NCBI GenBank assembly: GCA_963804825.1
Contig: CAWDRV010000004.1
Coordinates: 271,278 to 335,277, forward strand
Length of the DNA: 64,000 nt
Reading direction: 5' to 3'
Source: an uncultured Planctomycetia bacterium
Lineage (GTDB): Bacteria > Planctomycetota > Planctomycetia > Pirellulales > Thermoguttaceae
Shown here: positions 20,024 to 31,447 of the stretch, one piece after another
Layout of the letters: each line of letters starts with the position of its first letter
Position numbering within the stretch: position 1 is the first letter of the stretch
Program-made: the position numbers and the translations under genes
The notes under the pieces: model-generated
Databases searched by the model: none
Told to the model about the DNA's origin: nothing
What the model saw: only the letters and a program-made list of their open reading frames with translations

Positions 20024-20068
20024 CGAAATCAGGTGCCGGGCAACCGGTTGAGGGTTCGAATCCCTTGC
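20024..20068 (+). tRNA. Partial tRNA (3' half of a class-II Ser/Leu-like tRNA): probable att-site remnant
   Basis: GGTGCCGGGCAACCGGTTGAGGGTTCGAATCCCTTGCCCTCCGC is a variable-arm, T-arm and 3' acceptor segment. No matching 5' half upstream. Similar to the 3' ends of array tRNAs at 26218 and 27879. Confidence 0.4.
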
Positions 20069-21144: not shown

Positions 21145-21384
21145 ATGTCTAATTTAGAAGCTGCGTTAATTGGGGCAATTTGCGAGGAGGGACGCGCCCC
21201 AAAAACCAAGGAGGCAATCCTAGCTGAACTCAACCACCCGGACGTAACATGCTATTGGTGGTGGTGGCAGTATTGTCCCCTCGTCATTACGAATAACTGG
21301 CAATCCCTGTCATTTGAAAGCAAACTCGTCGCAATGCTCATCGGCGCAGAGACGGCGAGTTACATACTTGCGAACATGGATTGA
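21145..21384 (+). CDS. Hypothetical small protein (lower-GC island)
   Basis: 79-aa ORF MSNLEAALIGAICEEG...CYWWWWQYC in a lower-GC segment. Confidence 0.3.
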   Translation: MSNLEAALIGAICEEGRAPKTKEAILAELNHPDVTCYWWWWQYCPLVITNNWQSLSFESKLVAMLIGAETASYILANMD

Positions 21385-21525
21385 ATTACACGGCGGTCGC
21401 ACCCTTGTAAGTGCTGGGGTCTATTCGCCATTGAACATTCGCAAGCCCGACGTAAAGCATGATGATACAACCTAAAAAGACATACTGCTCAGGCTTAACC
21501 GTTGGCGTCAATTGGCCCGCTCGCA

Positions 21526-21996
21526 TCAGCGCGCCGCCCATCCGGGAATCATTGTTCCATCCGTGGTTTGCATCTGCCACTTAGGTTGCTCGGCTTCAAG
21601 CCATTGTTGCAAAATTTCCATCTGGGCCATTACTTCTTTATCCACAAGTTTGATCGCAAAATCAGCGTGCGCGATCGCATTGCGAATATCTCTAATCGCT
21701 TTCAGCGCCTTTAAGGGCTCGCCGTCGAATAAACCAAACTTCACGCCACGACTGAGGTTTTTGCCAATACTCAATGCACCCTTACACCCCGGTTTCTTTG
21801 CCTTCAGGCATCGTATGACGGCGTTATTAAGGAACTCTGTTCCTATGAGAACCTGTGCCAGTTCGCTTTCCGGTTTGAGCACATCCAATAGGGGTTGCCC
21901 CTTCTTGTTAAGAAACTCCGCGGCTACCACCATCTTGCCATCGGGCGTTCCCTGCGCGGTCGTGCCGCGTGGAAACGGAAGAAAATACATCTCCAT
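21526..21996 (-). CDS. HEPN-domain protein (Rx4-6H motif RNAIAH)
   Basis: ATG at 21996 with GGAGG RBS. IRDIRNAIAHADF matches the HEPN Rx4-6H motif. Lower GC. Confidence 0.5.
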   Translation of the reverse strand: MEMYFLPFPRGTTAQGTPDGKMVVAAEFLNKKGQPLLDVLKPESELAQVLIGTEFLNNAVIRCLKAKKPGCKGALSIGKNLSRGVKFGLFDGEPLKALKAIRDIRNAIAHADFAIKLVDKEVMAQMEILQQWLEAEQPKWQMQTTDGTMIPGWAAR

Positions 21997-22022
21997 TTTC
22001 TGCCCTCCTATAACAGTGCCCC

Positions 22023-22069
22023 TTGACACGTAAGTGTCTTATGATACAATTCCGCCTAGAAAGGGTCAA
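22023..22069. promoter_or_regulatory. Overlapping divergent sigma70-like promoters (plus: TTGACA-N16-TACAAT; minus: TTGACC-N17-TATCAT)
   Basis: Plus strand: TTGACA 22023-22028, TACAAT 22045-22050, then ATG at 22073. Minus strand: TTGACC (rc of 22064-22069) and TATCAT (rc of 22041-22046), upstream of the HEPN gene start at 21996. Confidence 0.5.
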
Positions 22070-22072
22070 CCC

Positions 22073-22267
22073 ATGAGACGAGAACCGATACCCCAGAGAC
22101 TTAGAACCGCCATTAGGCGGACGGGCAAGAGCATTTACCGGGTCGCAAAGGACGCGGGTGTCGGCCACCCGATCATTCTCCGCTTTCTGAGCGGAGAGCG
22201 AGACATACGGCTGGAGACGGCCGAGAAGCTAGCGCGGTCGCTAGGCTTGGAATTGAAAGAAGTGTAG
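22073..22267 (+). CDS. XRE-family helix-turn-helix transcriptional regulator
   Basis: SIYRVAKDAGVGHPIILRFLSGERDIRLETAEKLARSLGL is an HTH_XRE pattern. 64 aa. Confidence 0.65.
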   Translation: MRREPIPQRLRTAIRRTGKSIYRVAKDAGVGHPIILRFLSGERDIRLETAEKLARSLGLELKEV

Positions 22268-22299
22268 CAATAAAAACGCCCGGAGCGGTGGCAACCGTT

Positions 22300-23330
22300 C
22301 CGGGCAACCACAACCGGGCTTTCGCCCAATTGCGGGTTCGATGCTTGCATTATAGCGAAAGCCCCCAACAAAGGGAAGGCTTCGCTATGTGCAACGTCGT
22401 GAAACCGGAGCGCCAAAAGCAGGTGCTCCACATGCTGGTGGAGGGCAGTTCAATCCGATCCACGTCGCGCCTTACGGGAATCCATCGGGATACCATTGGT
22501 CGGCTGTTGGTCCGTTTCGGGCAAGGGTGCCGTCGTTTGCTCGATAACCGGTTGCAGGGATTGGCTTTACGGCACCTGGAATTGGACGAAATGTGGACTT
22601 TCGTGCTCAAAAAGGAGGGGCGATTGACCCTGGAAGAGCGCCAGGAGCGTTACGACATTGGGGATATTTACCTATGGACCGCCCTTGACCAGAAAACCAA
22701 GCTGATTCCCGCCTTTTTGGTTGGGAAACGGTCGGCAGACAACGCAAGGCGGTTTCTGCGGGACGTGGCCGGCCGGCTGCGGTTCCCCACGGCCCATGAC
22801 TCCGATCCGCACCACTACCAGCCGGGCGGGTATTCGCTGGTAGTGCAGATTTCCAGCGACGCCTTCCGGGCCTATCCCGAAGCGGTTGACTTGGCTTTCG
22901 GCCCCTATTGCAAATACGGCCAGATCATCAAGAACTATCGCAACGCCGACCAGCCGGGGCGCTATGCTCCCCCGGAGATGGTCGAGACTGAGCGCCGGAG
23001 GGTGTTCGCGTTGAGAGAAGACGAGGAGCGGACAATATGCACGTCCCACGTGGAGCGCCACAACTTGACCGTCCGCACCTTGTTGCGGCGGTTCACTCGC
23101 CTTGCTCTGGGATTCTCCAAAAAACTAGAGAACCTCGAGGCGGCGTGCGCGGCGTTTCTGGCGTACTACAACTTCGTTTGGCGAACCAGATACCCGGATG
23201 ACAGCGGGAAGGCAGGGCGGTATCGTCCGCCGGCCGCGGTCATGGCAGGCGTGGTTTCCAACCTCTGGACATTCACAGACCTGTTCAATCGTGTAATGGG
23301 GTAGAACCGGGCTGTTGTGGAGGCATACAT
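22300..23330 (+). mobile_element. IS1-family insertion sequence
   Basis: Contains an IS1-type transposase. Imperfect terminal inverted repeats around CCACAACCGGGCT (about 22307-22325) and CCGGGCTGTTGTGG (about 23300-23325). Confidence 0.55.
22386..23304 (+). CDS. IS1-family transposase (InsAB-like single ORF)
   Basis: N-terminal HTH IRSTSRLTGIHRDTIGRLL (InsA-like). The C-terminal HVERHNLTVRTLLRRFTRLALGFSKKLENLEAACAAFLAYYNF parallels IS1 InsB [41 protein letters not shown]. Confidence 0.7.
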
Positions 23331-23731
23331 GGCAGATACTTTTTCGCCAATGGAGAAAGCATCATGGGAAAAAACATGTATGCTTCTCCATCGTTCGCTT
23401 CATCAAGATGGCCGTGCGCACTCGCGCGAACAAAGATGTTCTTCTTTAGCAACCCAGCGACTAGAGGGGTATCTAATGGAAAGTCTAAGGTGTTCCGTTG
23501 CTGTTTCGTGAATCTGTTTATCGCCTCCCATTCGGAGGGATCAAGAGAAGCAATAGCTTGCTTTATGGCCTGTGTTTTTTGATCGTTGATTTCAACATGT
23601 TCCGTTTGGCAAGGACGGCTAATGCAGAAGAAAAAGGCAACGATGATCGCGCCAGACACTATCCCTACTCCGATTGCCGACAAGATCGCTGGAATGAGAT
23701 GCCATCCGCCCACCCAAGCGATAAGGTACAC
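23285..23731 (-). CDS. Membrane protein, 3' end possibly disrupted by the IS1 element
   Basis: N-terminal TM helices IAWVGGWHLIPAILSAIGVGIVSGAIIVAFFFCI. The ORF tail overlaps the IS1 right end. Confidence 0.35.
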   Translation of the reverse strand: MYLIAWVGGWHLIPAILSAIGVGIVSGAIIVAFFFCISRPCQTEHVEINDQKTQAIKQAIASLDPSEWEAINRFTKQQRNTLDFPLDTPLVAGLLKKNIFVRASAHGHLDEANDGEAYMFFPMMLSPLAKKYLPCMPPQQPGSTPLHD

Positions 23732-23943
23732 GGCCGCGCCTCCGATTACAGCAGCAGTAGCCGCAACGTTTTTTGCGAACGACCAAGCGGCATTAACCCG
23801 GATAACCCATTTTCAACACCATTCTTCGCTCATCGGACGCCCTCTTGCAATAGCGGCCGAAGGGCGTACAATGACAGCATCATTCAACCAGTGCCGCCCT
23901 ACGGCACGAGAACAGAAAGCGGCCGGATTTCCCCCGGCCGCTT

Positions 23944-24258
23944 TCATTTTATCCCGACCAGCGGCACGTGCAACCCACCATACCACCCAGAGGTGCAAAT
24001 TAGGCCACTGCCGCCCTCCCCGGTGGCTTGAAAGCGAACTTCAAAGGCAGTCGGATGATTCGCAATGGTCGAGCGCAGCCAACCGCGGCGTTCGACCATG
24101 CCGGCGGCCGTCAACAGAAACAGGGCATTGTCTTGAATGACGGTCAGCCGGTCGAGATCGAAGTCAGCCCACGTTTCGGGGATCGTCCGCAGCAACTCGG
24201 CGATTGCCCGCTTGAGAAGATCGGCTTCAGCGTCGGTTCGCGGGAGACGTTCTGCCAT
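23944..24258 (-). CDS. Hypothetical protein
   Basis: MAERLPRTDAEADLLKRAIAELLRTIPETWADFDLDRLTVIQDNALFLLTAAGMVERRGW... Protein-like composition. Confidence 0.35.
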   Translation of the reverse strand: MAERLPRTDAEADLLKRAIAELLRTIPETWADFDLDRLTVIQDNALFLLTAAGMVERRGWLRSTIANHPTAFEVRFQATGEGGSGLICTSGWYGGLHVPLVGIK

Positions 24259-24796
24259 GAATTCGCCCTTCGTTCTGCGGGTCGGCCCGCGCCGGCTGGG
24301 TTGTCCAGGTGGCCACCCGGCACAACCGTCCGGACGATTCTGCTCCACCCGTTTCTATCCCAGCATGCCCGCCATTTTACCCTCGGCGATGGCGTTTACC
24401 AGCCAGCGGGCGTAACGGCGGCTGCAGGGAGACGGACGGCAATCACTGGCCGCCCCGGGCAAAGGCACGACCTTCTCCATGGGTCACCGGCTCGCACCGT
24501 GGAAAATTTTCCGCGGGGCGGGAATAATTTCGCCCGTTCGAGCGTCTTATAGATAAGGCCGCCGTGCTCGGGAAAATTTCGTGAACTTCTGTAGCATCGG
24601 CGGCGTCTATACGATATAATAGCGATAGTGCGGCCCTCGGCGGGCTGCCAGTTTGAGAGAAAGAGCCATGACTTCGATACGGCTAAGTCACAAACAGCGA
24701 AGATGGATGGGTACATTCGCCGCCCAAGCGGCGAATACGCTCCCGTCCTATCCATTGCGCGTTTGACACCGGCCGTACCTATTCCGAAGAATACCG

Positions 24797-24832
24797 AAAG
24801 CCCGGTGTCATAACGACATCGGGCTTTTTTTA
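24797..24832 (+). terminator. Rho-independent terminator (AAAGCCCGGTG...CATCGGGC + TTTTTTTATT)
   Basis: GC stem agcccg/cgggct followed by a run of 7 T. Lies about 150 nt upstream of the first tRNA of the array. Confidence 0.6.
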
Positions 24833-24985
24833 TTGGGTCGGTAGCTGAGATGCGGGCACCGACCGAAGGTTGGTCGGCGGCGGCCTGAAAAGCCGCAGAC
24901 GCGGATTCGAGCACCGCCCGACCCACTGCGTGAAACGTGCGCGCGAACCCCTTGCTTCAACTGCGTGGAAGGTGCGCGCTGAGAT

Positions 24986-25059
24986 GGCCTGTTCGTCTAT
25001 CGGTTCGAGGACACCGGCCCTTCAAGCCGGGAAGACGGGTTCGACTCCCGTACGGGCCG
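24986..25059 (+). tRNA. tRNA-Glu(UUC), non-canonical (C33)
   Basis: Acceptor ggcctgt/acgggcc. The D-arm TTCGTCTATCGG resembles bacterial tRNA-Glu. Anticodon stem ccggc/gccgg with loop CCTTCAA. T-arm acggg-TTCGACT-cccgt. Confidence 0.7.
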
Positions 25060-25066
25060 CTGTGGG

Positions 25067-25160
25067 CAGAACGTAGCGAAGCCTGGTTATCGCGCGGGCA
25101 CCGATGCGCAGCATTGGTCCGGGGACCAGGAGACCGGCGGTTCAAATCCGCCCGTTCTGA
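25067..25160 (+). tRNA. tRNA-like, 94 nt, Pro-type D-loop, hairpin repeat where anticodon arm should be (probable pseudo-tRNA)
   Basis: Acceptor cagaacg/cgttctg, T-arm ggcgg-TTCAAAT-ccgcc, D-loop AAGCCTGGTTAT. The interior carries GGGCACCGATGCGCAGCATTGGTCC (array hairpin repeat). No standard anticodon arm. Confidence 0.35.
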
Positions 25161-25168
25161 CTGGATGA

Positions 25169-25241
25169 CGGGATGTAGGGTAGCGGCGAACCCGTGTGTT
25201 CTGGGAACACAAGATCGCAGGTTCGAGTCCTGCCATCCCGA
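25169..25241 (+). tRNA. tRNA-Pro(UGG), non-canonical (C33)
   Basis: Acceptor cgggatg/catcccg. Anticodon stem tgtgt/acaca with loop TCTGGGA. T-arm gcagg-TTCGAGT-cctgc. Confidence 0.65.
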
Positions 25242-25267
25242 CCTGACGGACAACGACGTTGGCACAT

Positions 25268-25339
25268 GGTAGTCGAGGGCCGGTTGCCCAAACCCGGCTG
25301 ATAACCGAGTGGCGCTGAGTTCGACTCTCAGGGCTACCA
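25268..25339 (+). tRNA. tRNA-Ile(GAU) (short D-loop; possible indel)
   Basis: Acceptor ggtagtc/ggctacc. Anticodon loop CTGATAA. T-arm ctgag-TTCGACT-ctcag. The D-arm looks truncated. Confidence 0.6.
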
Positions 25340-25405
25340 CTGGAAAGTGAGGAGCATGACCATGAAGCAAACCCGATGGAAACGCATACGCCCGGCCTGC
25401 ATTTC

Positions 25406-25477
25406 GGGGTCGTGGTGTAACGGCAGCACTCCGGACTTTTAATCCGGTAGGTGAAGGTTCGAGTCCTTTCGGCCCCA
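25406..25477 (+). tRNA. tRNA-Lys(UUU)
   Basis: Acceptor ggggtcg/cggcccc. Anticodon stem ccgga/tccgg with loop CTTTTAA. T-arm gaagg-TTCGAGT-ccttt. Confidence 0.8.
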
Positions 25478-25487
25478 CTCGCCGTGA

Positions 25488-25576
25488 CGGCGCGTAGCTC
25501 AATGGTCAGAGCGGGCCTCTTATAAGGGTCAGGACCACCTGCGGTGGTGCCCAGGGTTCGACTCCCTCCGCGCCCA
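25488..25576 (+). tRNA. tRNA-like with long variable hairpin, anticodon loop CTTATAA (UAU?); anticodon and acceptor ambiguous
   Basis: Canonical D-arm TAGCTCAATGGTCAGAGC. Anticodon stem ggcct/gggtc needs two G-U pairs. Variable hairpin ACCACCTGCGGTGGT. T-loop TTCGACT. The 5' acceptor pairing is imperfect. Confidence 0.4.
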
Positions 25577-25602
25577 CTGCTGCGCGTAACGAAGCAGACG
25601 AC

Positions 25603-25675
25603 GGGACCAAGGTGCTAGCGGCAGCACAGCGGATTCTTAATCCGCCAGGTGAGGGTTCAAGTCCCTCTGGTCCCA
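25603..25675 (+). tRNA. tRNA-Lys(CUU)
   Basis: Acceptor gggacca/tggtccc. D-arm gtgc/gcac. Anticodon stem gcgga/tccgc with loop TTCTTAA. T-arm gaggg-TTCAAGT-ccctc. Confidence 0.8.
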
Positions 25676-25690
25676 CTGATGTGAGCACTG

Positions 25691-25790
25691 GTCCGGGCAC
25701 CGACGCGCAGCGTTGGTCGTGGCGAGGATACCGCACCCGTAATGCGGCGACGAGGGTTCGAGTCCGGGCACCGACGCGAAGCGTTGGTCT
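25691..25790 (+). pseudogene. Pseudo-tRNA: Thr(CGU)-like anticodon arm (loop CCCGTAA, C33) flanked by two copies of the hairpin repeat, T-arm broken
   Basis: A direct repeat GTCCGGGCACCGACGCG[C/A]AGCGTTGGTC sits at both ends. Anticodon stem ccgca/tgcgg. The sequence around GGTTCGAGTCC cannot form a 5-bp T-stem. Confidence 0.35.
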
Positions 25791-25827
25791 GGTGCTCCTG
25801 TTGTTTGACAATTCGGCACACCACGAC

Positions 25828-25917
25828 GCGCCCATGGGGCACCGTCGCGAAGCGATGGTCGCGGCAGCCTGCTGCCTTGCCATGGCAGAAGTGCGGGTTC
25901 GACTCCCGCTGGGCGCT
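25828..25917 (+). tRNA. tRNA-Gly(GCC) with expanded D-region containing the hairpin repeat
   Basis: Acceptor gcgccca/tgggcgc. Anticodon stem ctgcc/ggcag with loop TTGCCAT. T-arm gcggg-TTCGACT-cccgc. 34 nt lie between the acceptor and the anticodon arm, including GGGGCACCGTCGCGAAGCGATGGTC. Confidence 0.5.
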
Positions 25918-25925
25918 TTTCAGCG

Positions 25926-26000
25926 CAGGACGTAGGAAAGCCTGGTATTCCGCGTGCCCCGGGCAGCACGAGATCGCGGGTTCAAATCCCGCCGTCCTGA
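25926..26000 (+). tRNA. tRNA-Pro(CGG)-like, 8-nt anticodon loop CCCGGGCA / C33
   Basis: Acceptor caggacg/cgtcctg. D-loop AAGCCTGGTAT. Anticodon stem cgtgc/gcacg. T-arm gcggg-TTCAAAT-cccgc. Confidence 0.5.
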
Positions 26001-26007
26001 CTTTGAT

Positions 26008-26082
26008 TGCGGTGGGGCCTGTGTTGGCACGGGCGGGCGCTTGTTAAGCGTCATGTCGCAGGTTCGATTCCTGCCACCGCAG
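26008..26082 (+). tRNA. tRNA-Asn(GUU)
   Basis: Acceptor tgcggtg/caccgca. Anticodon stem ggcgc/gcgtc with loop TTGTTAA. Variable loop ATGTC. T-arm gcagg-TTCGATT-cctgc. Confidence 0.7.
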
Positions 26083-26096
26083 CCTGTTGAGAGAAC

Positions 26097-26218
26097 GGAA
26101 GGGCAAGCCGGACCACCGCTTCGCGGCGGTGCCCGCGATGGCAGCCGCCGGGCACCATGCGAAGCATGGTCAGCGGCCGAGCGATGAGCCTTGAGGGTTC
26201 GACTCCCTCTCCTTCCGC
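26097..26218 (+). tRNA. Ser-type tRNA-like element, 122 nt with two hairpin insertions (probable pseudo/unusual tRNA)
   Basis: Acceptor ggaaggg/tccttcc (Ser-like), T-arm gaggg-TTCGACT-ccctc. The interior contains CACCGCTTCGCGGCGGTG (UUCG hairpin) and GGGCACCATGCGAAGCATGGTC (array repeat). Confidence 0.3.
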
Positions 26219-26223
26219 CTGCT

Positions 26224-26312
26224 GTGCCCTTGGCCGGCCGGCAGAGGTGCCAGCCTTCCAAGCTGGCGCGACCAACCTTCGGTCGGTGCCCGGTTCGACT
26301 CCCACAGGGCAC
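26224..26312 (+). tRNA. tRNA-Gly(UCC)-like with reverse-orientation hairpin repeat in variable region, defective T-arm (pseudo)
   Basis: Acceptor gtgccct/agggcac. Anticodon stem ccagc/gctgg with loop CTTCCAA, followed by GCGCGACCAACCTTCGGTCGGTGCCC. Relative to the paralog at 27439 it lacks about 18 nt, so the T-stem cannot pair. Confidence 0.35.
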
Positions 26313-26327
26313 TCTCAGCGATGACGA

Positions 26328-26398
26328 TCGGGGATCAGCTAGTGGCAGGCTTCCTGGCTTTGAACCAGGCAACGGAGGTTCAACCCCTCCTCCCCGAG
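26328..26398 (+). tRNA. tRNA-Gln(UUG)
   Basis: Acceptor tcgggga/tccccga (U1-A72 as in bacterial Gln). Anticodon stem cctgg/ccagg with loop CTTTGAA. T-arm ggagg-TTCAACC-cctcc. Confidence 0.75.
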
Positions 26399-26435
26399 CT
26401 TGCAGCCGGCGAGCCGTGTCTCGTCACGCAAACGA

Positions 26436-26506
26436 TGCGGAGTCATCTAACGGTAGGATGAGACTCTCTGAAGGTCTTCATGTTGGTTCAACTCCAGCCT
26501 CCGCAG
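26436..26506 (+). tRNA. tRNA-Gln(CUG)
   Basis: Acceptor tgcggag/ctccgca. D-stem catc/gatg. Anticodon stem agact/ggtct with loop CTCTGAA. T-arm gttgg-TTCAACT-ccagc. Confidence 0.7.
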
Positions 26507-26515
26507 CTTGATAAC

Positions 26516-26601
26516 GGAAGCCATCCGGCCGGATGAGGAGCCTGTCTTGAAAACAGGTGGCGGCCCGACGCCGCTTGTGGGTTCGAGTCCCACGGCTTCC
26601 G
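26516..26601 (+). tRNA. tRNA-Ser(UGA)
   Basis: Acceptor ggaagcc/ggcttcc. Anticodon stem cctgt/acagg with loop CTTGAAA. Long variable arm TGGCGGCCCGACGCCGCT. T-arm gtggg-TTCGAGT-cccac. Confidence 0.75.
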
Positions 26602-26606
26602 CCTTT

Positions 26607-26677
26607 GGGGTCATGGTCCAACAGGACGACGCCAGCTCCGCACGCTGGAGATCCGGGTGCGACTCCCGGTGACTCCA
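26607..26677 (+). tRNA. tRNA-Ala(CGC), non-canonical (C33, T-loop TGCGACT), G3-U70 present
   Basis: Acceptor ggggtca/tgactcc gives G3-U70 and discriminator A. Anticodon stem ccagc/gctgg with loop TCCGCAC. T-arm ccggg-TGCGACT-cccgg. Confidence 0.65.
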
Positions 26678-26689
26678 CTGTAGAAACAT

Positions 26690-26761
26690 AGCCCCGTGGT
26701 CCAACGGCAACGACGCTTGGTCCACACCCAGGAAACGATGGTTCGACTCCATCCGGGGCTA
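26690..26761 (+). tRNA. tRNA-Val(CAC), non-canonical (C33)
   Basis: Acceptor agccccg/cggggct. D-arm GTCCAACGGCAACGAC. Anticodon stem cttgg/ccagg with loop TCCACAC. T-arm gatgg-TTCGACT-ccatc. Confidence 0.65.
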
Positions 26762-26765
26762 CTGC

Positions 26766-26839
26766 GGCTCGGTAGGCAACCGGCAGACCACCTTGGCTTA
26801 GAACCAGGGATGCTGTGGGTTCGACTCCCACCTGAGCCA
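26766..26839 (+). tRNA. tRNA with anticodon UAG (Leu) on a class-I body (short variable loop), non-canonical
   Basis: Acceptor ggctcgg/ctgagcc, discriminator A. Anticodon stem cttgg/ccagg with loop CTTAGAA. Variable loop GATGC. T-arm gtggg-TTCGACT-cccac. Confidence 0.55.
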
Positions 26840-26853
26840 CTGTGAACGACCCT

Positions 26854-26928
26854 GCCCTCGTGGAGCAGCCTGGAGTGCTCGCCTGCCTGTCACGCAGGAG
26901 ATCGCGGGTCCAAATCCCGTCGAGGGCG
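26854..26928 (+). tRNA. tRNA-Asp(GUC) (T-loop TCCAAAT, C54)
   Basis: Acceptor gccctcg/cgagggc, discriminator G. D-stem gagc/gctc. Anticodon stem cctgc/gcagg with loop CTGTCAC. T-arm gcggg-TCCAAAT-cccgt. Confidence 0.7.
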
Positions 26929-26942
26929 CTTTCAAGTATGAC

Positions 26943-27017
26943 GGCGCGGTACGCAAATCGGCAAAGCGGTCAAGCTCAAACCTTGGTGATCTGCGGGTTC
27001 GACTCCCGCCTGTGCCA
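26943..27017 (+). tRNA. tRNA with anticodon CAA (Leu) on a class-I body, non-canonical
   Basis: Acceptor ggcgcgg/ctgtgcc. D-arm CGCAAATCGGCAAAGCG. Anticodon stem tcaag/cttgg with loop CTCAAAC. Short variable loop. T-arm gcggg-TTCGACT-cccgc. Confidence 0.5.
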
Positions 27018-27028
27018 CTGGAAACCAT

Positions 27029-27112
27029 GCGTCAACTGGGCATCGGCGAGCCCAACTGCCCGTAAAACAGCCAGCCCGAAAGGCTATGCAGGTTCGACTC
27101 CTGCCCGGCGCA
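27029..27112 (+). tRNA. Class-II-like tRNA element, anticodon arm degenerate (loop CCCGTAAAA), acceptor mismatched (probable pseudo/chimera)
   Basis: D-arm GGGCATCGGCGAGCCC. Variable hairpin AGCCCGAAAGGCT. T-arm gcagg-TTCGACT-cctgc. The 5' gcgtcaa does not fully pair with the 3' ccggcgc. Confidence 0.3.
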
Positions 27113-27122
27113 CTGACAACAT

Positions 27123-27195
27123 GGCCCGTTCGTCTATCGGCCAAGGACACCGGCCCCTCACGCCGGAAAGGCGGGTTCAATTCCCGCACGGGCTG
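27123..27195 (+). tRNA. tRNA-Glu(CUC), non-canonical (C33)
   Basis: Paralog of 24986. Acceptor ggcccgt/acgggct. Anticodon stem ccggc/gccgg with loop CCCTCAC. T-arm gcggg-TTCAATT-cccgc. Confidence 0.65.
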
Positions 27196-27202
27196 CTGAC
27201 AT

Positions 27203-27284
27203 GACCAAGTGGCGCAACTGGTAGACGCGCGACGCTCAGAACGTCGTGCCGCAAGGCATGGGAGTTCGAATCTCCCCTTGGTCA
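27203..27284 (+). tRNA. tRNA-Leu(CAG), class II
   Basis: Acceptor gaccaag/cttggtc, discriminator A. D-arm GGCGCAACTGGTAGACGCG. Anticodon stem cgacg/cgtcg with loop CTCAGAA. Variable hairpin TGCCGCAAGGCAT. T-arm gggag-TTCGAAT-ctccc. Confidence 0.75.
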
Positions 27285-27295
27285 CTGAGGAATTG

Positions 27296-27362
27296 CAGGC
27301 GCGGCAGGTGCCCAACTGGCTCCCATAAGGCCGGTGCGCCCGGCTCGATACCGGGGCCTGCA
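27296..27362 (+). tRNA. Degenerate tRNA-like element, anticodon loop CCCATAA (CAU, C33)
   Basis: Acceptor tgcaggc/gcctgca. T-arm cccgg-CTCGATA-ccggg. The interior is only 38 nt, with a 4-bp anticodon stem ggct/ggcc. Confidence 0.3.
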
Positions 27363-27364
27363 AC

Positions 27365-27429
27365 TGCGGGTGGGCCAGTGCTCAGCCGGGCCCCATAAGC
27401 CTGGACCGCCGGGCGCAACACCCGGACCC
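27365..27429 (+). tRNA. Degenerate tRNA-like element, anticodon loop CCCATAA (CAU, C33), 1-72 mismatch
   Basis: T-arm ccggg-CGCAACA-cccgg. Acceptor tgcgggt/acccgcc has a T1xC72 mismatch. Anticodon stem gggc/gcct. Confidence 0.25.
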
Positions 27430-27438
27430 GCCACTTGC

Positions 27439-27530
27439 GACCGGGTACGCAAATTGGCATAGCGGCGCGACCAACCTTCGGTCGGTGCCCGAGAGCCTCG
27501 TGCCTGTGGGTTCGACTCCCACCTCGGTCA
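27439..27530 (+). tRNA. Class-II-like tRNA with reverse-orientation hairpin repeat occupying the anticodon-arm position (loop AACCTTC)
   Basis: Acceptor gaccggg/ctcggtc. D-arm CGCAAATTGGCATAGCG. The anticodon-position segment CGACC-AACCTTC-GGTCG is part of GCGCGACCAACCTTCGGTCGGTGCCC. Variable arm GAGAGCCTCGTGCC. T-arm gtggg-TTCGACT-cccac. Confidence 0.4.
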
Positions 27531-27544
27531 CTGACAAGGAAAAC

Positions 27545-27617
27545 GATCCCGTGGTCCAACGGCGAAGACGCCTGGGTGACAACCAGGAAAGCGATGGTTC
27601 GACTCCATCCGGGATCA
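27545..27617 (+). tRNA. tRNA-Val(GAC)
   Basis: Acceptor gatcccg/cgggatc. D-arm GTCCAACGGCGAAGAC. Anticodon stem cctgg/ccagg with loop GTGACAA. T-arm gatgg-TTCGACT-ccatc. Confidence 0.7.
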
Positions 27618-27711
27618 TGTTGGAAAAACGGTCTGTAGGTGTTTCGGCAGCACACCTCCTCGGTAAAGAGGAAGACCCGGTTCATCTCCGGGACGGACCT
27701 CTTGATGATGC

Positions 27712-27782
27712 GGGCCGCTGGTCCAACGGGAAGACGCTTGGTTTGCACCCAGGCAATCGGGGTTCGATTCCCCGGCGGTCCA
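27712..27782 (+). tRNA. tRNA-Ala(UGC)
   Basis: Acceptor gggccgc/gcggtcc with G3-U70, discriminator A. Anticodon stem cttgg/ccagg with loop TTTGCAC. T-arm cgggg-TTCGATT-ccccg. Confidence 0.8.
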
Positions 27783-27791
27783 CTGAAATAC

Positions 27792-27879
27792 GGAAGGTAG
27801 CCGGATACCGGGTTGCCGGGCCGCCCCGCTAAGGCGGTTCTCCCCTGTGGAGATGAGGGTTCAACTCCCTTGCCTTCCG
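27792..27879 (+). tRNA. tRNA-Ser(GCU), class II, non-canonical (C33)
   Basis: Acceptor ggaaggt/gccttcc, discriminator G. Anticodon stem ccgcc/ggcgg with loop CCGCTAA. Variable hairpin TCTCC-CCTGT-GGAGA. T-arm gaggg-TTCAACT-ccctt. Confidence 0.65.
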
Positions 27880-27898
27880 CTTGGTGTGTCGGGTTGAC

Positions 27899-27969
27899 GC
27901 CCCGATAGTGAAACGGAAATCATGCCTCGCTTCTAACGAGGCGATCCAGGTTCAACTCCTGGTCGGGGT
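27899..27969 (+). tRNA. tRNA-Arg(UCU)
   Basis: Acceptor gccccga/tcggggt. Anticodon stem cctcg/cgagg with loop CTTCTAA. T-arm ccagg-TTCAACT-cctgg. Confidence 0.75.
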
Positions 27970-27990
27970 GCTGGCGGAGACAGTTATATA

Positions 27991-28066
27991 TGGTGTCCGT
28001 GGTGTAGCGGTTCCTGCACGCCTGGCTGTGAACCAGGAGGTAGGGGTTCGATTCCCCTCGGATACC
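27991..28066 (+). tRNA. tRNA-His(GUG) with encoded G-1 and C73
   Basis: G at -1, acceptor gtgtccg/cggatac, discriminator C. Anticodon stem cctgg/ccagg with loop CTGTGAA. T-arm agggg-TTCGATT-cccct. Confidence 0.8.
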
Positions 28067-28096
28067 CCTGGGGAGAATTGTGGGAAGGAGAACGTT

Positions 28097-28693
28097 ATGG
28101 TCACCAAGGTACTCCAGCGGCCGACGCTGGTGCTGAACCGCAACTGGCAGCCGGTGAACGTCGCCACCGTGACGCGGGCACTGGTGCTGCTGTGGAACGA
28201 GTCTGCGCGCGTCGTGGACCCGGCCGACTACCAGCTCTACACCTGGGCCGACTGGGCCAAGCTGCGGCCGGGCAACGGCGAGGACTGCATCCAGGCGGTG
28301 AGGTTCAAGCTGCGGGTGCCGGAAGTGGTCGCACTGAGCGGCTACGATCGGCTGCCGACGGCCCACGTGACCTTCAGCCGCCGGAACATTTTCAAGCGGG
28401 ACCACTACACCTGCCAGTACTGCGGCGCCCAGCCGGGCAGCGATGAACTGACGCTGGACCACGTCCTGCCGCGTTCCCAGGGTGGCGTGTCGGGTTGGGG
28501 GAACTGCGTGCTGGCCTGTGTGGCCTGCAACAAGCGGAAGGCCGATCGGACACCGGAGCAAGCACGGATGCACCTGCGCCGTAAGCCGGTCCGGCCGACG
28601 TGGAAGCCGCTCTATGCGGATCACGAGGTGCGGATCGAGAGCTGGTCGAAGTTCGTCAGCGAAGCGTACTGGAACGTAAGGCTTGAGACCTGA
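28097..28693 (+). CDS. HNH endonuclease
   Basis: ATG at 28097 with RBS GGAAGGAGAA. HNH motif CQYCGAQPGSDELTLDHVLPRSQGG...NCVLACVACNKRK. 198 aa. Embedded in the tRNA array; the larger listed ORF 27881..28693 overlaps tRNAs and is spurious. Confidence 0.8.
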   Translation: MVTKVLQRPTLVLNRNWQPVNVATVTRALVLLWNESARVVDPADYQLYTWADWAKLRPGNGEDCIQAVRFKLRVPEVVALSGYDRLPTAHVTFSRRNIFKRDHYTCQYCGAQPGSDELTLDHVLPRSQGGVSGWGNCVLACVACNKRKADRTPEQARMHLRRKPVRPTWKPLYADHEVRIESWSKFVSEAYWNVRLET

Positions 28694-28736
28694 GACCTGA
28701 GACCTGAGACCTGAGGCTTGAGGCTTGAGTGGTGAG
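28681..28736. repeat. Tandem heptad repeats (GCTTGAG/ACCTGAG x8)
   Basis: gcttgag acctgag acctgag acctgag acctgag gcttgag gcttgag tggtgag overlaps the HNH stop codon. An inverted complement array lies at 29117-29196. Confidence 0.7.
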
Positions 28737-28740
28737 GAAG

Positions 28741-29121
28741 TTAGGCACTTCGGCGAAGAGACCGCACTAGACCTGCCAGGACCTTTGCGGTCTCGTCCGC
28801 CTGTTGTGCGACTTTCTGGGCGGCATCGTCCGGCACGTATCCTAGGCGATGAGCGACCGTAAGCTGGTACTGGACCTCACGCGATGAACCAAACGCCATG
28901 TCGAGAAAACGAATGTAGTCGGCCTGCGAGTGCCTGGCGCAGCCCTCGACGATATTCGAGGCAATGGAGATTGCGGCACGACGCAATTGGATGGTCAGTC
29001 CGAACTGCTCCTGCCTAGGAAATGTCTTGGTAATTGAATAGATCGACAGAACAAGATTGTCGGCTAACTCGAACGCACGGAGTTTTCGATGGTCTCGCAT
29101 CGCTGTATTGTGCCACTTCAA
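28741..29121 (-). CDS. Four-helix-bundle protein (23S rRNA intervening-sequence protein family, TIGR02436-like)
   Basis: MRDHRKLRAFELADNLVLSIYSITKTFPRQEQFGLTIQLRRAAISIASNIVEGCARHSQADYIRFLDMAFGSSREVQYQL matches the conserved family pattern (FGLTSQLRRAA.SI..NIAEG). The start may be the Met at 29100 rather than 29121. Confidence 0.7.
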   Translation of the reverse strand: MKWHNTAMRDHRKLRAFELADNLVLSIYSITKTFPRQEQFGLTIQLRRAAISIASNIVEGCARHSQADYIRFLDMAFGSSREVQYQLTVAHRLGYVPDDAAQKVAQQADETAKVLAGLVRSLRRSA

Positions 29122-29196
29122 GCCTCACAACTCAAGCCTCAGGCCCCAGGCCTCAAGCCTAAGGCCCCAGGCCTCAAGCCTAAGGCCTCAGGCCTA
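29117..29196. repeat. Tandem heptad/21-bp repeats (CTCAAGC/CTAAGGC/CCCAGGC), inverted complement of the 28681-28736 array
   Basis: caagcctcacaactcaagcctcaggccccaggcctcaagcctaaggccccaggcctcaagcctaaggcctcaggcct. Together with the left array it can form a long imperfect stem around the 4HB gene. Confidence 0.65.
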
Positions 29197-29200
29197 TTAC

Positions 29201-29270
29201 AGGAGTGTCCTCCTGGGAGAGGAAGCGGCCTCCAAAGCCGCTGCACGGGGTTCGAATCCTCGCGCTCCTG
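29201..29270 (+). tRNA. tRNA-Trp(CCA)
   Basis: Acceptor aggagtg/cgctcct, discriminator G. Anticodon stem gcggc/gccgc with loop CTCCAAA. T-arm cgggg-TTCGAAT-cctcg. Confidence 0.75.
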
Positions 29271-29273
29271 CTT

Positions 29274-29345
29274 GCCGACGTGGCCGAAAGGCAAGGCGGC
29301 GGTCCTGTAAACCGCATGATGCTGGTTCGAATCCAGTCGTCGGCT
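29274..29345 (+). tRNA. tRNA-Thr(UGU), non-canonical (C33)
   Basis: Acceptor gccgacg/cgtcggc. D-arm GCCGAAAGGCAAGGC. Anticodon stem gcggt/accgc with loop CCTGTAA. T-arm gctgg-TTCGAAT-ccagt. Confidence 0.6.
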
Positions 29346-29356
29346 TTGGTACGTTT

Positions 29357-29428
29357 GTCCCGATGGTGTAGCGGATCGCACGGGGCTCTCCTAAGGCCCT
29401 GGCCCTGGTTCGACTCCAGGTCGGGACA
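29357..29428 (+). tRNA. tRNA-Arg(CCU)
   Basis: Acceptor gtcccga/tcgggac. D-arm GTGTAGCGGATCGCAC. Anticodon stem gggct/ggccc with loop CTCCTAA. T-arm cctgg-TTCGACT-ccagg. Confidence 0.75.
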
Positions 29429-29434
29429 CTATTC

Positions 29435-29506
29435 GTCTCGATGGTGTAGCGGATCGCATAGGACCCTCCGAAGGTCCAGGTCCAGGTTCGACTCCTGGTC
29501 GAGACA
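29435..29506 (+). tRNA. tRNA-Arg(CCG)
   Basis: Acceptor gtctcga/tcgagac. Anticodon stem ggacc/ggtcc with loop CTCCGAA. T-arm ccagg-TTCGACT-cctgg. Confidence 0.75.
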
Positions 29507-29509
29507 TTT

Positions 29510-29582
29510 GCCCTGCGAGTGTGCCGGATTAGCACGGCAGACTACGAATCTGCAAGACGGGGTTCGATTCCTCGGCGGGGCG
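29510..29582 (+). tRNA. tRNA-Arg(ACG)
   Basis: Acceptor gccctgc/gcggggc, discriminator G. Anticodon stem gcaga/tctgc with loop CTACGAA. T-arm cgggg-TTCGATT-cctcg. Confidence 0.75.
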
Positions 29583-29593
29583 CTGAAACGAAT

Positions 29594-29666
29594 GTCCTCG
29601 GAGTGTGCCGGATAAGCACGCGACCGTGCGAAGGTCGTAGACCAGGTCCAATTCCTGGCGAGGACG
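29594..29666 (+). tRNA. Arg-type tRNA body with anticodon arm CGACC-GTGCGAA-GGTCG (GCG; stem identical to the hairpin-repeat core), T-loop TCCAATT
   Basis: Paralog of 29510 (same D-arm GTGTGCCGGATAAGCAC). Acceptor gtcctcg/cgaggac. Purine at position 32, anticodon GCG. Confidence 0.45.
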
Positions 29667-29690
29667 CTTGACAATTCGGCGCTGGAGCCA
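29667..29690. repeat. Direct repeat DR1 (CTTGACAATTCGGCGCTGGAGCCA): promoter-like TTGACA plus a copy of the first 13 nt of tRNA-Cys
   Basis: 21 of 24 positions identical to 30734-30757, which is the true 5' end of tRNA-Cys. The two repeats flank a 1.04-kb lower-GC insert. Confidence 0.6.
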
Positions 29691-29859
29691 CAGCATAGCA
29701 TTTGGGCGGCGGTCGCCCATCGCAGATGTAAGCGGGCCAACTGGCGCACCCCACCACAATTCGGTGCGACAGCGCATCGTGTCGGGCCATAGCCCGCCCG
29801 AGAATGCGCTAATCTCACTGTGGATAACAAGGGATTCCCAGTCAACGCGGAGAAATGCA

Positions 29860-30738
29860 ATGGCCATCAATTACCAACGAGCGAGTGAACTGCTACTAGA
29901 GACCCAACAAGCAATGCAGTGCGACGAAAGCACGCGTCTGTGCGAAGCGGTGGGCAAGTTGCTGGATGCGCGTCTATGTGGGGCTGATCCTTGGGACTGG
30001 CGCTACAACACCACGCATTGGGCATTGGATGTGGTCAATGTCTGTAAGGAGATCGGGTACAGCGTTGCATGGATGCGAGCGTTGGCTCGCTACTGCTCGG
30101 AGTCGGAGGAGCAGGATCGGCAATCCGTCGAGGGCCTCGTGTCGTATTATGCGGACAACGCTGCAACGAGGATCAGTTCGTGCCGTGACAAACTCGCGCT
30201 CCTTGCATGGTCGTATTATTGCCCATTCAACCCTGACAAGAAGGACGACGTCTTGAGTTTTGAGCAGGTTCACGCCCGATTGACCACCCCGCTTAGGTTC
30301 GGCCTCCACTTCAACGGTCACAATGAGTTCCTCGTCGAACTGAACAAGCTCCTGGGATCAGGCTTTGAAAGGGCTATTGCCTACCGACACAAAAAGGTAC
30401 ATCGCATGGAACCGCGCGTTATGATGCGTAAGCCCGAGGTCCCCGACCAACGATGTTACATGTTTGCGGTAACGACAGAAAAGGACGTTCGCGGATTCGA
30501 CGATAAGCTCAAGAAGATGTACCCAGATGATGGGTTTCGAGCAGAAGTCCGACAGGGGTGCTTCCTCGATGGCGTGCTTTTTGACCGGCGAGCGCCCGAG
30601 GAATTGCTCTGGCACTTCGAGGATTTCGACGGATTCACTTATCCTTGTTGGAAGAGTCTATGTGATGCGACCGCGGGCTCGTGCGAGATACTGTTACGTC
30701 GTGAACCAATGCTTTCAAAGGCTGGCCAAGGCACTTGA
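29860..30738 (+). CDS. Hypothetical protein (cargo of insertion within tRNA array; lower GC)
   Basis: ATG at 29860 with RBS GGAGAAA. 292 aa, no recognisable motifs. About 50% GC against about 65% for the flanks. Confidence 0.5.
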   Translation: MAINYQRASELLLETQQAMQCDESTRLCEAVGKLLDARLCGADPWDWRYNTTHWALDVVNVCKEIGYSVAWMRALARYCSESEEQDRQSVEGLVSYYADNAATRISSCRDKLALLAWSYYCPFNPDKKDDVLSFEQVHARLTTPLRFGLHFNGHNEFLVELNKLLGSGFERAIAYRHKKVHRMEPRVMMRKPEVPDQRCYMFAVTTEKDVRGFDDKLKKMYPDDGFRAEVRQGCFLDGVLFDRRAPEELLWHFEDFDGFTYPCWKSLCDATAGSCEILLRREPMLSKAGQGT

Positions 30739-30757
30739 CAACGTGGCGCTGGAGCCA
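30734..30757. repeat. Direct repeat DR2 (CTTGACAACGTGGCGCTGGAGCCA), overlaps 5' end of tRNA-Cys
   Basis: Matches DR1 at 29667-29690. Confidence 0.6.
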
Positions 30758-30816
30758 GACGGCACGGCGGCTGCCTGCAAAGCAGCTTCAAGTGGGTTCG
30801 ACTCCCACCGGCGCCT
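30745..30816 (+). tRNA. tRNA-Cys(GCA)
   Basis: Acceptor ggcgctg/cggcgcc, discriminator U. D-arm GCCAGACGGCACGGC. Anticodon stem gctgc/gcagc with loop CTGCAAA. T-arm gtggg-TTCGACT-cccac. Confidence 0.8.
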
Positions 30817-30927
30817 TTTTGGAAGCAATGATACGGCCGGGCCAACGGCGCAGCGCCGCCCTGTCCTCCAGCGAGGCGGTCGGCGACGTGCGTTCCGTAC
30901 ATGGGTTCTGACCGATGGTCGTGTCAA

Positions 30928-31000
30928 GCGAGGTTAGCTCAGTGGATAGAGCACCAGACCAATAATCTGGCTGTCGCGGGTTCGACTCCCGTACCAACAC
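30928..31000 (+). pseudogene. Pseudo-tRNA (canonical D-arm TAGCTCAGTGGATAGAGC, loop CCAATAA, 3' acceptor does not pair with 5' end)
   Basis: T-arm gcggg-TTCGACT-cccgt is followed by accaaca, but the 5' acceptor is gcgaggt. Anticodon stem ccaga/tctgg with A34 and C33. Confidence 0.35.
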
Positions 31001-31447
31001 CGCAGGCTAAACCCCTGCTCCAAACGGCCCGCGACCAACGCGGGGCGTTGGTGCCCGGCGGGCCAACGTGTGATCGGCCACCGGCGGCCGAGCGACCGAC
31101 GGCGCCGAGGACTCTGGGCATACTGCCTGTAAGGCAGCGCCCGGAGGAATCGACGCCCAAGGGAGCACACGGTTGTCCGGTGGCAGCACGGCCGAGTGCC
31201 ATGTAGTGCGTGGATACCGCTTCCGCCGGCCTCCGGCAAGCGGCAACGGATGCCTGGCGACTCGCCCCAGGGCTTTGCCCCTTCGGCGACCAGCCCGGCG
31301 GAAACTGCCGCACCGCCGCAGGCTATGCGGATGCTCAAACGACACTCCGCAGTTGTCCGTGTGATCGCCGCTGGCTCCGCCGCCCGACGGCTTTATGAAA
31401 CGCAGACAAGAGCGGCCCACGAAAGGCCGCAGGAAGGAAGGTGAAGG

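Follow-up and report, generated by a model that had tools for sequence, protein, structure and literature searches.

Long arrays of tRNA genes with a linked HNH homing endonuclease gene are known as L-arrays and have been reported to be supernumerary; that of Anabaena is induced by translational stress, and 3 of its 26 genes are pseudogenes (PMC8421152). Here, we describe an array of this kind in a stretch of 64,000 nucleotides from an uncultured planctomycete (contig CAWDRV010000004.1, positions 271,278 to 335,277; hereafter the window), in which many tRNA genes carry C instead of U at position 33 of the anticodon loop (C33), together with 80 related loci. The planctomycete arrays resemble the Nostoc/Anabaena L-array (PMC8421152; Tran et al. 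2016, PMC4758250) in the number and density of their tRNA genes (tens on a single strand, with more than 2 per kb), in the linked homologous HNH gene and in the embedded cargo open reading frames (ORFs). The Nostoc/Anabaena array is supernumerary to dispersed housekeeping tRNAs, and the planctomycete arrays may be so too, to judge from the tuf loci of related genomes. Unlike sporadic L-arrays, the planctomycete arrays keep one gene order over many genera and have a Band7/SPFH gene 3' of the array in 28 of the 80 loci, which looks like long vertical retention more than sporadic horizontal transfer. They also differ from the Nostoc array, where C33 is found in 0 of 16 tRNAs and a nucleotide other than U8 in 1 of 16, by having C33 in 17% of their tRNAs and no U8 in 28%.

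Functional tRNAs with C33 have precedents in eukaryotes. Saccharomyces cerevisiae tRNA-Leu(GAG) has a natural C33 whose conversion to U33 changes almost nothing (PMC13492127), and the Leu-GAG genes of the planctomycete arrays likewise have C33 in all copies. The initiator tRNA-Met of multicellular eukaryotes also has C33 (PMC8887486, PMC5041475), and one of the C33 genes of the window is an initiator-like gene with the anticodon CAU. Unlike these eukaryotic tRNAs, the array genes are bacterial, belong to many families at once and are polymorphic between species, and the trait seems confined to a probably supernumerary set whose housekeeping counterparts, in the related genomes sampled, keep U33. 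Candida tRNA-Ser(CAG), with G33 (cited in PMC5041475 and PMC13492127), is a further elongator without U33 that still decodes, with a distorted loop; it differs from the array genes in being a single eukaryotic tRNA with a purine at position 33, tied to codon reassignment. Phage tRNA clusters (van den Berg et al. 2023, PMC10264068) are similar to the planctomycete arrays in their large size, in their link to the HNH family and in loop bases unlike those of host housekeeping tRNAs, but the planctomycete array stands in a chromosomal context and has no linked nuclease partner; position 33 is not mentioned in that study, and the distant phage arrays that we sampled lack C33. Literature searches for C33 in bacterial arrays or in Planctomycetota found nothing.

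C33 tRNA genes in the array of the window

The array occupies positions 24835..30995 of the window, with all of its genes on the + strand, and is broken up by the HNH gene and two cargo ORFs. ARAGORN and Rfam together identify about 40 tRNA or tRNA-like genes at more than 2 per kb; ARAGORN alone places 35 tRNA genes on this strand in the interval 24.8-30.8 kb, and the Rfam tRNA model finds 25 at its gathering score, with further ones at relaxed thresholds. The array thus has the size, density and orientation of an L-array (20 or more tRNA genes in one orientation, with no fewer than 2 per kb). Spacers are mostly 6-30 nt long, and none of the tRNA genes encodes CCA.

The register of the anticodon loops was determined by covariance alignment to Rfam RF00005 (gathering score 29) and by our own cloverleaf parser, which does not score the loop sequence, and the two gave identical registers for the C33 genes. 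Eight genes of the window have a 5-bp anticodon stem, a 7-nt loop and C33 in the Rfam alignment, so that covariance-model placement of the stems, named beforehand as a possible refutation, leaves C at position 33. C33 is present in 8 of the 25 clean 7-nt loops of the array, compared with 3 of 108 in HNH-linked arrays outside the planctomycete set, namely those of Nostoc, Acidiphilium, the phages Tunturi_5 and S-CRM01 and IMG/VR contigs (Fisher p = 6e-5). The C33 tRNAs score between 49.5 and 61.9 bits, except Thr-GGU (33.9) and Ser-GCU (31.1, with the tRNA-Sec model), and the U33 tRNAs of the window between 34 and 67 bits. ARAGORN moves the register of C33 tRNAs to put T before the anticodon, calling for instance the Pro-UGG gene at 25169 a Gln-CUG.

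An earlier note on this DNA, made by reading the letters alone, had proposed C33 in at least 10 tRNAs of the array with identity elements kept. Both methods bear this out for tRNA-Glu(UUC) (24986..25059, loop CCTTCAA, C33 at 25020), tRNA-Pro(UGG) (25169..25241, loop TCTGGGA, C33 at 25201, 61.8 bits), tRNA-Ala(CGC) (26607..26677, loop TCCGCAC, C33 at 26638), tRNA-Val(CAC) (26690..26761, loop TCCACAC, C33 at 26722), tRNA-Glu(CUC) (27123..27195, loop CCCTCAC, C33 at 27156), tRNA-Ser(GCU) (27792..27879, loop CCGCTAA, C33 at 27827, with a long variable arm, found by the Rfam Sec model and the parser) and tRNA-Thr(UGU) (29274..29345, loop CCTGTAA, C33 at 29305, 61.9 bits). As the note stated, the Rfam alignment shows G3-U70 and A73 in Ala-CGC; in Pro-UGG, C1-G72, A73 and G37 are kept. 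Its list of array tRNAs with U33 is also correct, by sequence and by the parser. The remaining genes of the proposal are less regular. The Pro(CGG)-like gene at 25926..26000 has an 8-nt loop, CCCGGGCA (25958-25965), which Rfam aligns with an extra loop base (52.3 bits) in agreement with the parser. tRNA-Thr(CGU) (25683..25800, stem CCGCA/TGCGG, loop CCCGTAA) does have C33, at 25737, but the gene is broken by two hairpin insertions, in the D arm (25695-25718) and in the T arm (25766-25789); its orthologues have the loop CCCGTAA in 20 loci. The two adjacent genes with a CAU anticodon also have C33, but neither is called by the Rfam tRNA model, the second receiving only a sub-threshold Tymo_tRNA-like match. 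In the first (27294..27363, loop CCCATAA, C33 at 27323), the D arm is reduced and the T loop, CTCGATA, non-canonical; the gene is kept in 28 loci at 74-99% identity, most of them with TTCATAA. The second (27365..27433, loop CCCATAA, C33 at 27393) is initiator-like: it has a mismatch at 1:72 (C1xA72 in many loci), a trait of bacterial initiator tRNAs, and a 4-nt D loop, and is kept in 43 loci, most of them with CTCATAA. Its T loop, CGCAACA, is non-canonical too, and CGCAACA/TGCGACC was noted for this element.

C33 is also found in genes that the note had not listed. tRNA-Thr(GGU) (27630..27700, loop TCGGTAA, C33 at 27661, 33.9 bits) has an A8-U14 pair and a C-A mismatch at 31-39, and its loop is identical in the related locus L001. 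A Tyr(GUA)-like gene (27028..27112, loop CCGTAAA) has a probable C33 at 27061; its anticodon stem is weak, with C-A at 31-39, and Rfam gives it only 23 bits, with the Sec model, and its orthologues have the loop CCGTAAC. A Leu(GAG)-like gene (27439..27531, loop CCGAGAG), probably with C33 as well, is disrupted by a hairpin at 27469-27490, and an intact orthologue with TCGAGAG is present in L001. The terminal tRNA-like gene (30932..30995, loop CCAATAA) scores 45.6 bits over model positions 5-66; in at least 25 loci its body from D arm to T arm is highly conserved, but of the acceptor stem only a vestige of about 3 bp is left, and the loop is hypervariable across loci (CCAATAA, CCGTGAA, CCGATAA, TTTGGAA, CTATCAA, TCCCGAA and others). 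Apart from these genes, the anticodon arm of a Pro(GGG)-like gene (25067..25161, 40.9 bits with a 34-nt insert, loop region TCCGGGGA) is interrupted by a hairpin insertion (25096-25119).

Position 33 across the arrays

A scan for the HNH protein in species-representative genomes returned at least 540 relatives, of which the best 80 loci were kept; array-wide counts refer to these loci and the window (81 arrays). The HNH proteins of the 80 loci are 67-97% identical to that of the window, their labels are almost all Planctomycetota (Pirellulales, Thermoguttaceae, Planctomycetaceae), and most of these loci have 20-40 tRNAs on the HNH strand. Gene order is kept, with Phe, Glu, Pro, Pro/Ile, Lys, Ile-UAU, Lys, Thr-CGU, Pro, Asn, Gly, Gln, Gln, Ala-CGC, Val, Leu, Asp, Leu, Tyr, Glu-CUC, Leu, Leu-GAG, Val, Thr-GGU, Ala, Ser, Arg and His 5' of the HNH gene, and Trp, Thr-UGU, four Arg genes and Cys 3' of it.

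In 7-nt loops, position 33 is T in 1000 tRNAs, C in 202, G in 9 and A in none, whereas position 37, likewise unscored by the parser, is a purine in 1182 of 1182 tRNAs, which therefore supports the register. The proportion of C33 is far higher in the planctomycete arrays (202/1202) than in the other HNH-linked arrays (Fisher p = 1e-5). The search of phage and metagenome arrays for C33 that the note had suggested was successful in one respect, the IMG/VR contig L102, whose HNH protein is 83% identical to that of the window and whose planctomycete-type array has C33 in 9 of 28 tRNAs; the distant phage arrays gave 0.

C33 is unevenly distributed among anticodon families (chi-square 492, 35 degrees of freedom, with loci treated as phylogenetically independent). 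It reaches 72-100% in six of them, Leu-GAG (12/12), Pro-GGG (13/14), Ala-CGC (16/20), Val-CAC (8/10), Glu-CUC (23/30) and Thr-CGU (21/29), and is intermediate in Ala-GGC (12/24), Val-UAC (14/34), Thr-GGU (10/25), Tyr-GUA (10/33), Glu-UUC (11/39) and Thr-UGU (7/40). Lys, Asn, Gln, His, Phe, Gly-UCC, Arg-UCU, Arg-CCG and Leu-CAG have 0-1 cases per family of about 35-65 genes, and C33 is absent from the smaller families Ile-UAU (17 genes), Arg-CCU (13), Leu-CAA (26) and Trp (7). By the base at position 35, the share of C33 is 38% with G, 17% with A, 13% with U and 5% with C, and it is commoner with C34 than with U34. Among tRNAs for ANN codons, C33 is tolerated by Thr and the CAU genes, and U33 is kept in those with A/U-rich anticodons, Lys, Asn, Ile, Ser-GCU and Arg-UCU/CCU, except that the Ser-GCU genes of the window and of L001 have C33. 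On a neighbour-joining tree of the HNH proteins, about 90 parsimony changes are counted at position 33, all in the tolerant families, a number possibly inflated since the HNH tree may differ from the trees of the tRNAs. There are no changes at this position in Lys, Asn, Phe, Ile-UAU, Gly-UCC, Cys and Arg-UCU/CCU/CCG, in many of which positions 32 and 38 vary.

The neutral C/(C+T) ratio, taken from fourfold-degenerate sites of the HNH genes, is 0.78, and a site free for either pyrimidine is therefore expected to be C in about 78% of cases. The six families with 72-100% C33 lie at about this level, and no family is clearly above it; constraint seems partial in the intermediate families and complete in the strict ones. 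Compensating changes at 32, 38 or 31-39 were looked for in the C33 tRNAs, with no clear pattern.

Signs of function and housekeeping copies

The C33 genes are real, folded, under purifying selection and conserved across species, with anticodon and purine 37 kept; they form a recurrent class of non-canonical tRNAs, which supports the proposal of a real class of this kind in the earlier note. Identity with the orthologues is 79-87% for the C33 tRNAs of the window, compared with 79-91% for the U33 tRNAs and 46-83% for the spacers. The cloverleaf is held by compensatory substitutions: within subsets made of C33 genes only, double changes are found in 14 of 21 stem pairs of Thr-CGU and in 12 of 21 of Pro-GGG. 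For Thr-UGU, orthologues were chosen by sequence similarity alone; 99.1% of the cells of their alignment are paired, compared with 93.1% in shuffles (0 of 500 reach 99.1%), and four of the five anticodon-stem pairs show double changes while T and C alternate in the column of position 33. The register of this tRNA is thus fixed independently of the two methods above. Anticodon, purine 37 and identity elements are all present (G3-U70/A73 in Ala, C1-G72/A73/G37 in Pro), and anticodons are kept at syntenic slots across loci. In particular, Ala slots keep Ala anticodons although alanyl-tRNA synthetase does not read the anticodon, indicating selection for decoding.

The canonical elongator combination of U33 and U8-A14 is departed from in the window through C33 in at least 9 intact genes and through other pairs at 8-14. 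Across the arrays, most families have U8-A14, whereas Cys, Asn, Arg-GCG and Arg-UCG have G8-G14, and Lys-CUU and Thr-GGU have A8-U14. Since this pair co-varies by family, the three-dimensional fold seems to be constrained too, in non-standard ways. In the window, A8-U14 is found at 25603 (Lys-CUU) and 27630 (Thr-GGU), and G8-G14 at 26008 (Asn), 30745 (Cys), 29510 and 29594 (Arg-ACG/GCG); some Gln-CUG genes have C8-C14, and each variant is conserved across loci. Position 55 is G or C instead of U in some array tRNAs, with T loops such as TGCGACT (26607), TCCAAAT (26854) and TCCAATT (29594), and most Thr-UGU orthologues have the T loop TGCGAAT or TGCAAAT and a D loop without GG. Several tRNAs with Leu anticodons have a short 5-nt variable loop (class I), at 26766-26839 (UAG) and 26943-27017 (CAA) in the window and in the CAA, UAA, UAG and GAG families of the loci; among Leu anticodons, only Leu-CAG has the normal long variable arm. 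The array also carries tRNA-Ile(UAU) (25488-25576) and both Arg-ACG and Arg-GCG (29510-29666), and the parser found no canonical CAU tRNA in any of the 81 arrays; to judge from its anticodons, the set seems to avoid those needing lysidine or inosine.

A tRNA-Leu(GAG) reported by ARAGORN at 5854-5926 is a false positive, lying within a coding sequence and having no Rfam support, and the window therefore has no stand-alone tRNA for comparison. Housekeeping tRNAs were obtained instead from the tuf loci of Pirellulales, reached through an EF-Tu search, where the order is sigma factor, tRNAs, tuf, tRNA-Trp, secE, nusG and rplK. U33 and U8 are found in each of the housekeeping genes there, Thr-UGU (TTTGTAA), Tyr (CTGTAAA), Gly-UCC, Thr-GGU (TTGGTAA) and Trp. 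Their identity with the array copies is only about 60%, and for Thr-UGU, Thr-GGU and Tyr the housekeeping and array copies differ at position 33. The few isolated tRNAs in the flanks of the 80 loci all belong to U33 families.

Possible origin of the C33 tRNAs

We consider it on balance probable that the C33 tRNAs are functional supernumerary tRNAs in which the U33 requirement has been relaxed to any pyrimidine in tolerant anticodon contexts. The array tRNAs would be extra copies beside canonical housekeeping tRNAs, and in this array lineage the U33 requirement may have been eased only in some isoacceptor families, mainly those with a purine, especially G, at position 35 and, in four-codon boxes, the isoacceptors with C34 or G34; Glu and Tyr would be further cases. 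GC-biased mutation would repeatedly turn U33 into C33 in these families, and at times the change would be reversed, whereas selection for U33 would stay strict with weak A/U-rich anticodons or a strong dependence on modification of position 37, as in Lys, Asn, Ile, Phe, Gln, His and Arg-UCU. The contact between the 2'-OH of U33 and N7 of a purine at position 35 is independent of base 33 and stronger than that with a pyrimidine 35 (PMC5041475), which fits the share of C33 by base 35. By analogy with the yeast tRNA, the C33 tRNAs may continue to be charged and to take part in decoding with little loss. C33 acts as an anti-determinant for Escherichia coli TsaBCDE, stopping the formation of N6-threonylcarbamoyladenosine at position 37 (t6A37; PMC8887486), and the Thr and Met C33 tRNAs therefore probably lack t6A37.

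Several observations weigh against a simple relaxation. The parser scores well-folded tRNAs only, about 70% of the ARAGORN calls (1221 tRNAs in the window and the 80 loci). The G+C content of a locus correlates only weakly with its C33 fraction (rho 0.23, p = 0.12), and the Acidiphilium array has C33 in only 2 of 34 tRNAs, indicating that GC pressure alone is insufficient. Housekeeping U33 tRNAs are known from related genomes, for five anticodons, three of them in families that bear C33. The purine-35 rule has exceptions, Glu and Tyr being relaxed and Phe, Ile and Leu-CAG strict. The near-fixation of C33 in Leu-GAG and Pro-GGG could reflect positive selection, and the A8-U14, G8-G14 and G55 variants, fixed and co-varying, resemble a designed alternative architecture more than drift.

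These last points lead to adaptive explanations, of which the first, that C33 and the other off-standard positions make the tRNAs poor substrates for enzymes that read the loop, is unlikely in our view, though not remote. Such enzymes could be anticodon nucleases or toxins of phages, competitors or the cell's own toxin-antitoxin systems, or modification enzymes such as the t6A machinery, and the array would provide a toxin-proof or differently modified back-up pool. Phage tRNA clusters have been proposed to escape anticodon nucleases through loop substitutions (PMC10264068), and the HNH family of the arrays is also found beside phage tRNA clusters; translational stress induces the L-array of Anabaena at a time when VapC-type tRNases are induced as well (PMC8421152). 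Moreover, some toxins cut at position 33, CdiA-CT EC536 cleaving between 32 and 33, the E. coli t6A enzyme is blocked by C33, array and housekeeping copies are unlike at this very position, and the repeated switching between U and C could reflect an arms race, with C33 close to fixation in two families. However, no cognate nuclease is linked to the array, where the one candidate, a HEPN-like ORF, has a sub-cut-off match, no PADLOC match and no counterpart in the 80 related loci; C33 shares do not clearly exceed the neutral expectation; the two arrays of one metagenome-assembled genome (MAG; loci L012 and L021) differ in their C33 state; and within codon boxes C33 tends to peak in the more dispensable C34/G34 isoacceptors, as relaxed constraint predicts. 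None of the results requires that the tRNAs be decoys or decoding modulators, two further ideas of the earlier note. A broader version of the adaptive explanation, also unlikely, is that the arrays encode a parallel tRNA set that is off-standard by design, including C33, A8-U14 or G8-G14, G55, a nearly D-loop-less initiator-like tRNA and, in a few arrays, an EF-Tu paralogue. If so, this set would escape anticodon nucleases, secreted toxins and the machineries for t6A and 4-thiouridine, and would be an insulated back-up pool under attack or stress.

The remaining explanations deny that C33 persists in working tRNAs. That the C33 genes are decaying pseudogenes of a redundant paralogue pool, a reading that the earlier note had offered, is improbable: it fits a few genes of the window, damaged by hairpin insertions in stems, an 8-nt loop or C-A at 31-39 (Thr-GGU and Tyr), and it is in keeping with the supernumerary nature of the arrays and the pseudogenes of Anabaena, but it does not fit the whole class, whose Rfam scores and conservation match those of the U33 tRNAs, whose stems are held by compensatory changes, whose anticodons are syntenic across species, in which position 37 is a purine throughout and position 33 never A, and whose frequency is uncorrelated with the load of hairpin insertions (rho 0.06). 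Editing of C33 to U after transcription, leaving canonical mature tRNAs, seems more improbable still. C-to-U editing of tRNAs occurs elsewhere, at C32 in trypanosomes and plants and at C8 in Methanopyrus, and U33 is replaced almost solely by C; editing of this position is not known from bacteria, no deaminase gene is linked to the arrays, whose only conserved protein-coding neighbours found are the HNH and Band7/SPFH genes, and editing is not needed to explain the family-specific pattern. Sequencing or assembly errors can practically be dismissed, as the earlier note had argued. That note, and it alone, reported indel errors elsewhere in the window, and the closest relatives come from MAG assemblies with contig names suggestive of long reads. 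Nevertheless, C33 is not an assembly artefact, because independent assemblies show identical C33 loops at syntenic genes, in L001 (Ser-GCU and Thr-GGU), L004 (Thr-UGU) and L003 (Glu-CUC), with stems covarying around them, and C33 is also found in loci with contig names suggestive of short-read assemblers.

Few nucleotides in biology vary as little as U33, yet explanations for its conservation still rest on a small number of mutants. The planctomycete arrays are a natural test of why U33 is conserved, since they supply more than 200 natural C33 tRNA genes; these represent about 90 independent switches between U and C that sort by anticodon family, and housekeeping U33 copies from the same phylum serve as controls. 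C33 is apparently tolerated with purine 35, GC-rich anticodons and redundant isoacceptors, and apparently forbidden with A/U-rich, t6A37-dependent anticodons. Should the deviations be adaptive, L-arrays would be a bacterial counterpart of nuclease-resistant phage tRNA sets. The data also show that tRNA finders, here ARAGORN, can shift the register and mis-assign the anticodon of such genes, which matters for MAG annotation.

Other features of the array and its surroundings

The HNH gene, the signature of this array family, lies inside the array at 28097..28693 on the + strand (Pfam HNH_5, 2.7e-13). An exact-sequence look-up of its protein returned no record. The protein is 34.5% identical (3e-20) to the HNH protein all8564 of plasmid pCC7120delta of Nostoc PCC 7120, whose gene adjoins the Nostoc tRNA cluster (trn operon); the array thus shares with L-arrays an HNH gene that is both linked and homologous to all8564. 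In the comparison with defence systems it showed only generic HNH-motif similarity, including to PtuB. Homologues are also found in tRNA-rich phages, beside tRNA clusters, with 253 Mycobacterium phage records. When the DNA of the array was compared with phage records, the only matches were short ones, of the size of a tRNA. Several MAGs have two HNH loci each, and in at least two MAGs both carry arrays. An EF-Tu paralogue is embedded in the array of three loci, at differing slots (L023:6273-7442, L045:10920-12119 and L046:1649-2845). It shares 57-60% identity with E. coli EF-Tu and about 70-74% with Pirellulales EF-Tu proteins, three of which, checked by context, are encoded at tuf loci; closer relatives, at 78-91% identity, occur in metagenomes.

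The first cargo ORF of the window (28741-29121, - strand) encodes a 23S-IVS/Avd-like four-helix protein; of the 80 related loci, only 3 have this gene. It is flanked at 28690-28730 and 29120-29198 by short tandem repeats that are mutually reverse-complementary (GAGACCTGAG/GAGGCTTGAG on one side and CTCAAGCCT/CAGGCC-type on the other), suggesting that the gene and its bracketing repeats form a cassette. The second, the HEPN-like ORF (29860-30738), has a weak Pfam HEPN match below the cut-off; with no PADLOC or NCBIfam match and no counterpart in the 80 related loci, it was rejected as a nuclease partner. It lies within an insertion of about 1.07 kb bounded by a duplication (29668-29700 and 30735-30757) of CTTGACAA..GGCGCTGGAGCCA, that is, the upstream motif and the first 13 nt of tRNA-Cys.

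An IS1-like transposase gene (22288-23304) stands just upstream of the array, in a segment (20000-24000) with a G+C content of 56% compared with about 63%. The upstream flank is not common to the related loci. On the downstream side of the array lies a Band7/SPFH gene. The leader (24763-24828) has a promoter-like site, TTGACA, 18 nt and AAGAAT, directly followed by a 14-bp hairpin and a T run, terminator-like, which ends 6 nt ahead of the first tRNA. It aligns to about 16 related loci with about 80% identity, and the combination of promoter-like site and hairpin may act as an attenuator-type control of the array.

The insertions that interrupt tRNA genes of the window are copies of a hairpin element of 20-24 nt (GGGCACC-stem-loop-GGTC, in either orientation), present 11 times, at 24854-24875, 25096-25119, 25533-25552, 25695-25718, 25766-25789, 25837-25860, 26111-26134, 26150-26171, 26270-26291, 27469-27490 and 31033-31056. 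Ten copies lie within tRNA genes, in D loops, variable loops, anticodon stems and T stems, and the eleventh 3' of the terminal tRNA-like gene. In the one case compared, Ile-UAU, the insertion is unique to the window, and matches to the motif pattern occur, anywhere in the locus, in 47 of the 80 related loci. The hairpin, which has disrupted several genes of the window, resembles a very small palindromic mobile element with the array as its target.

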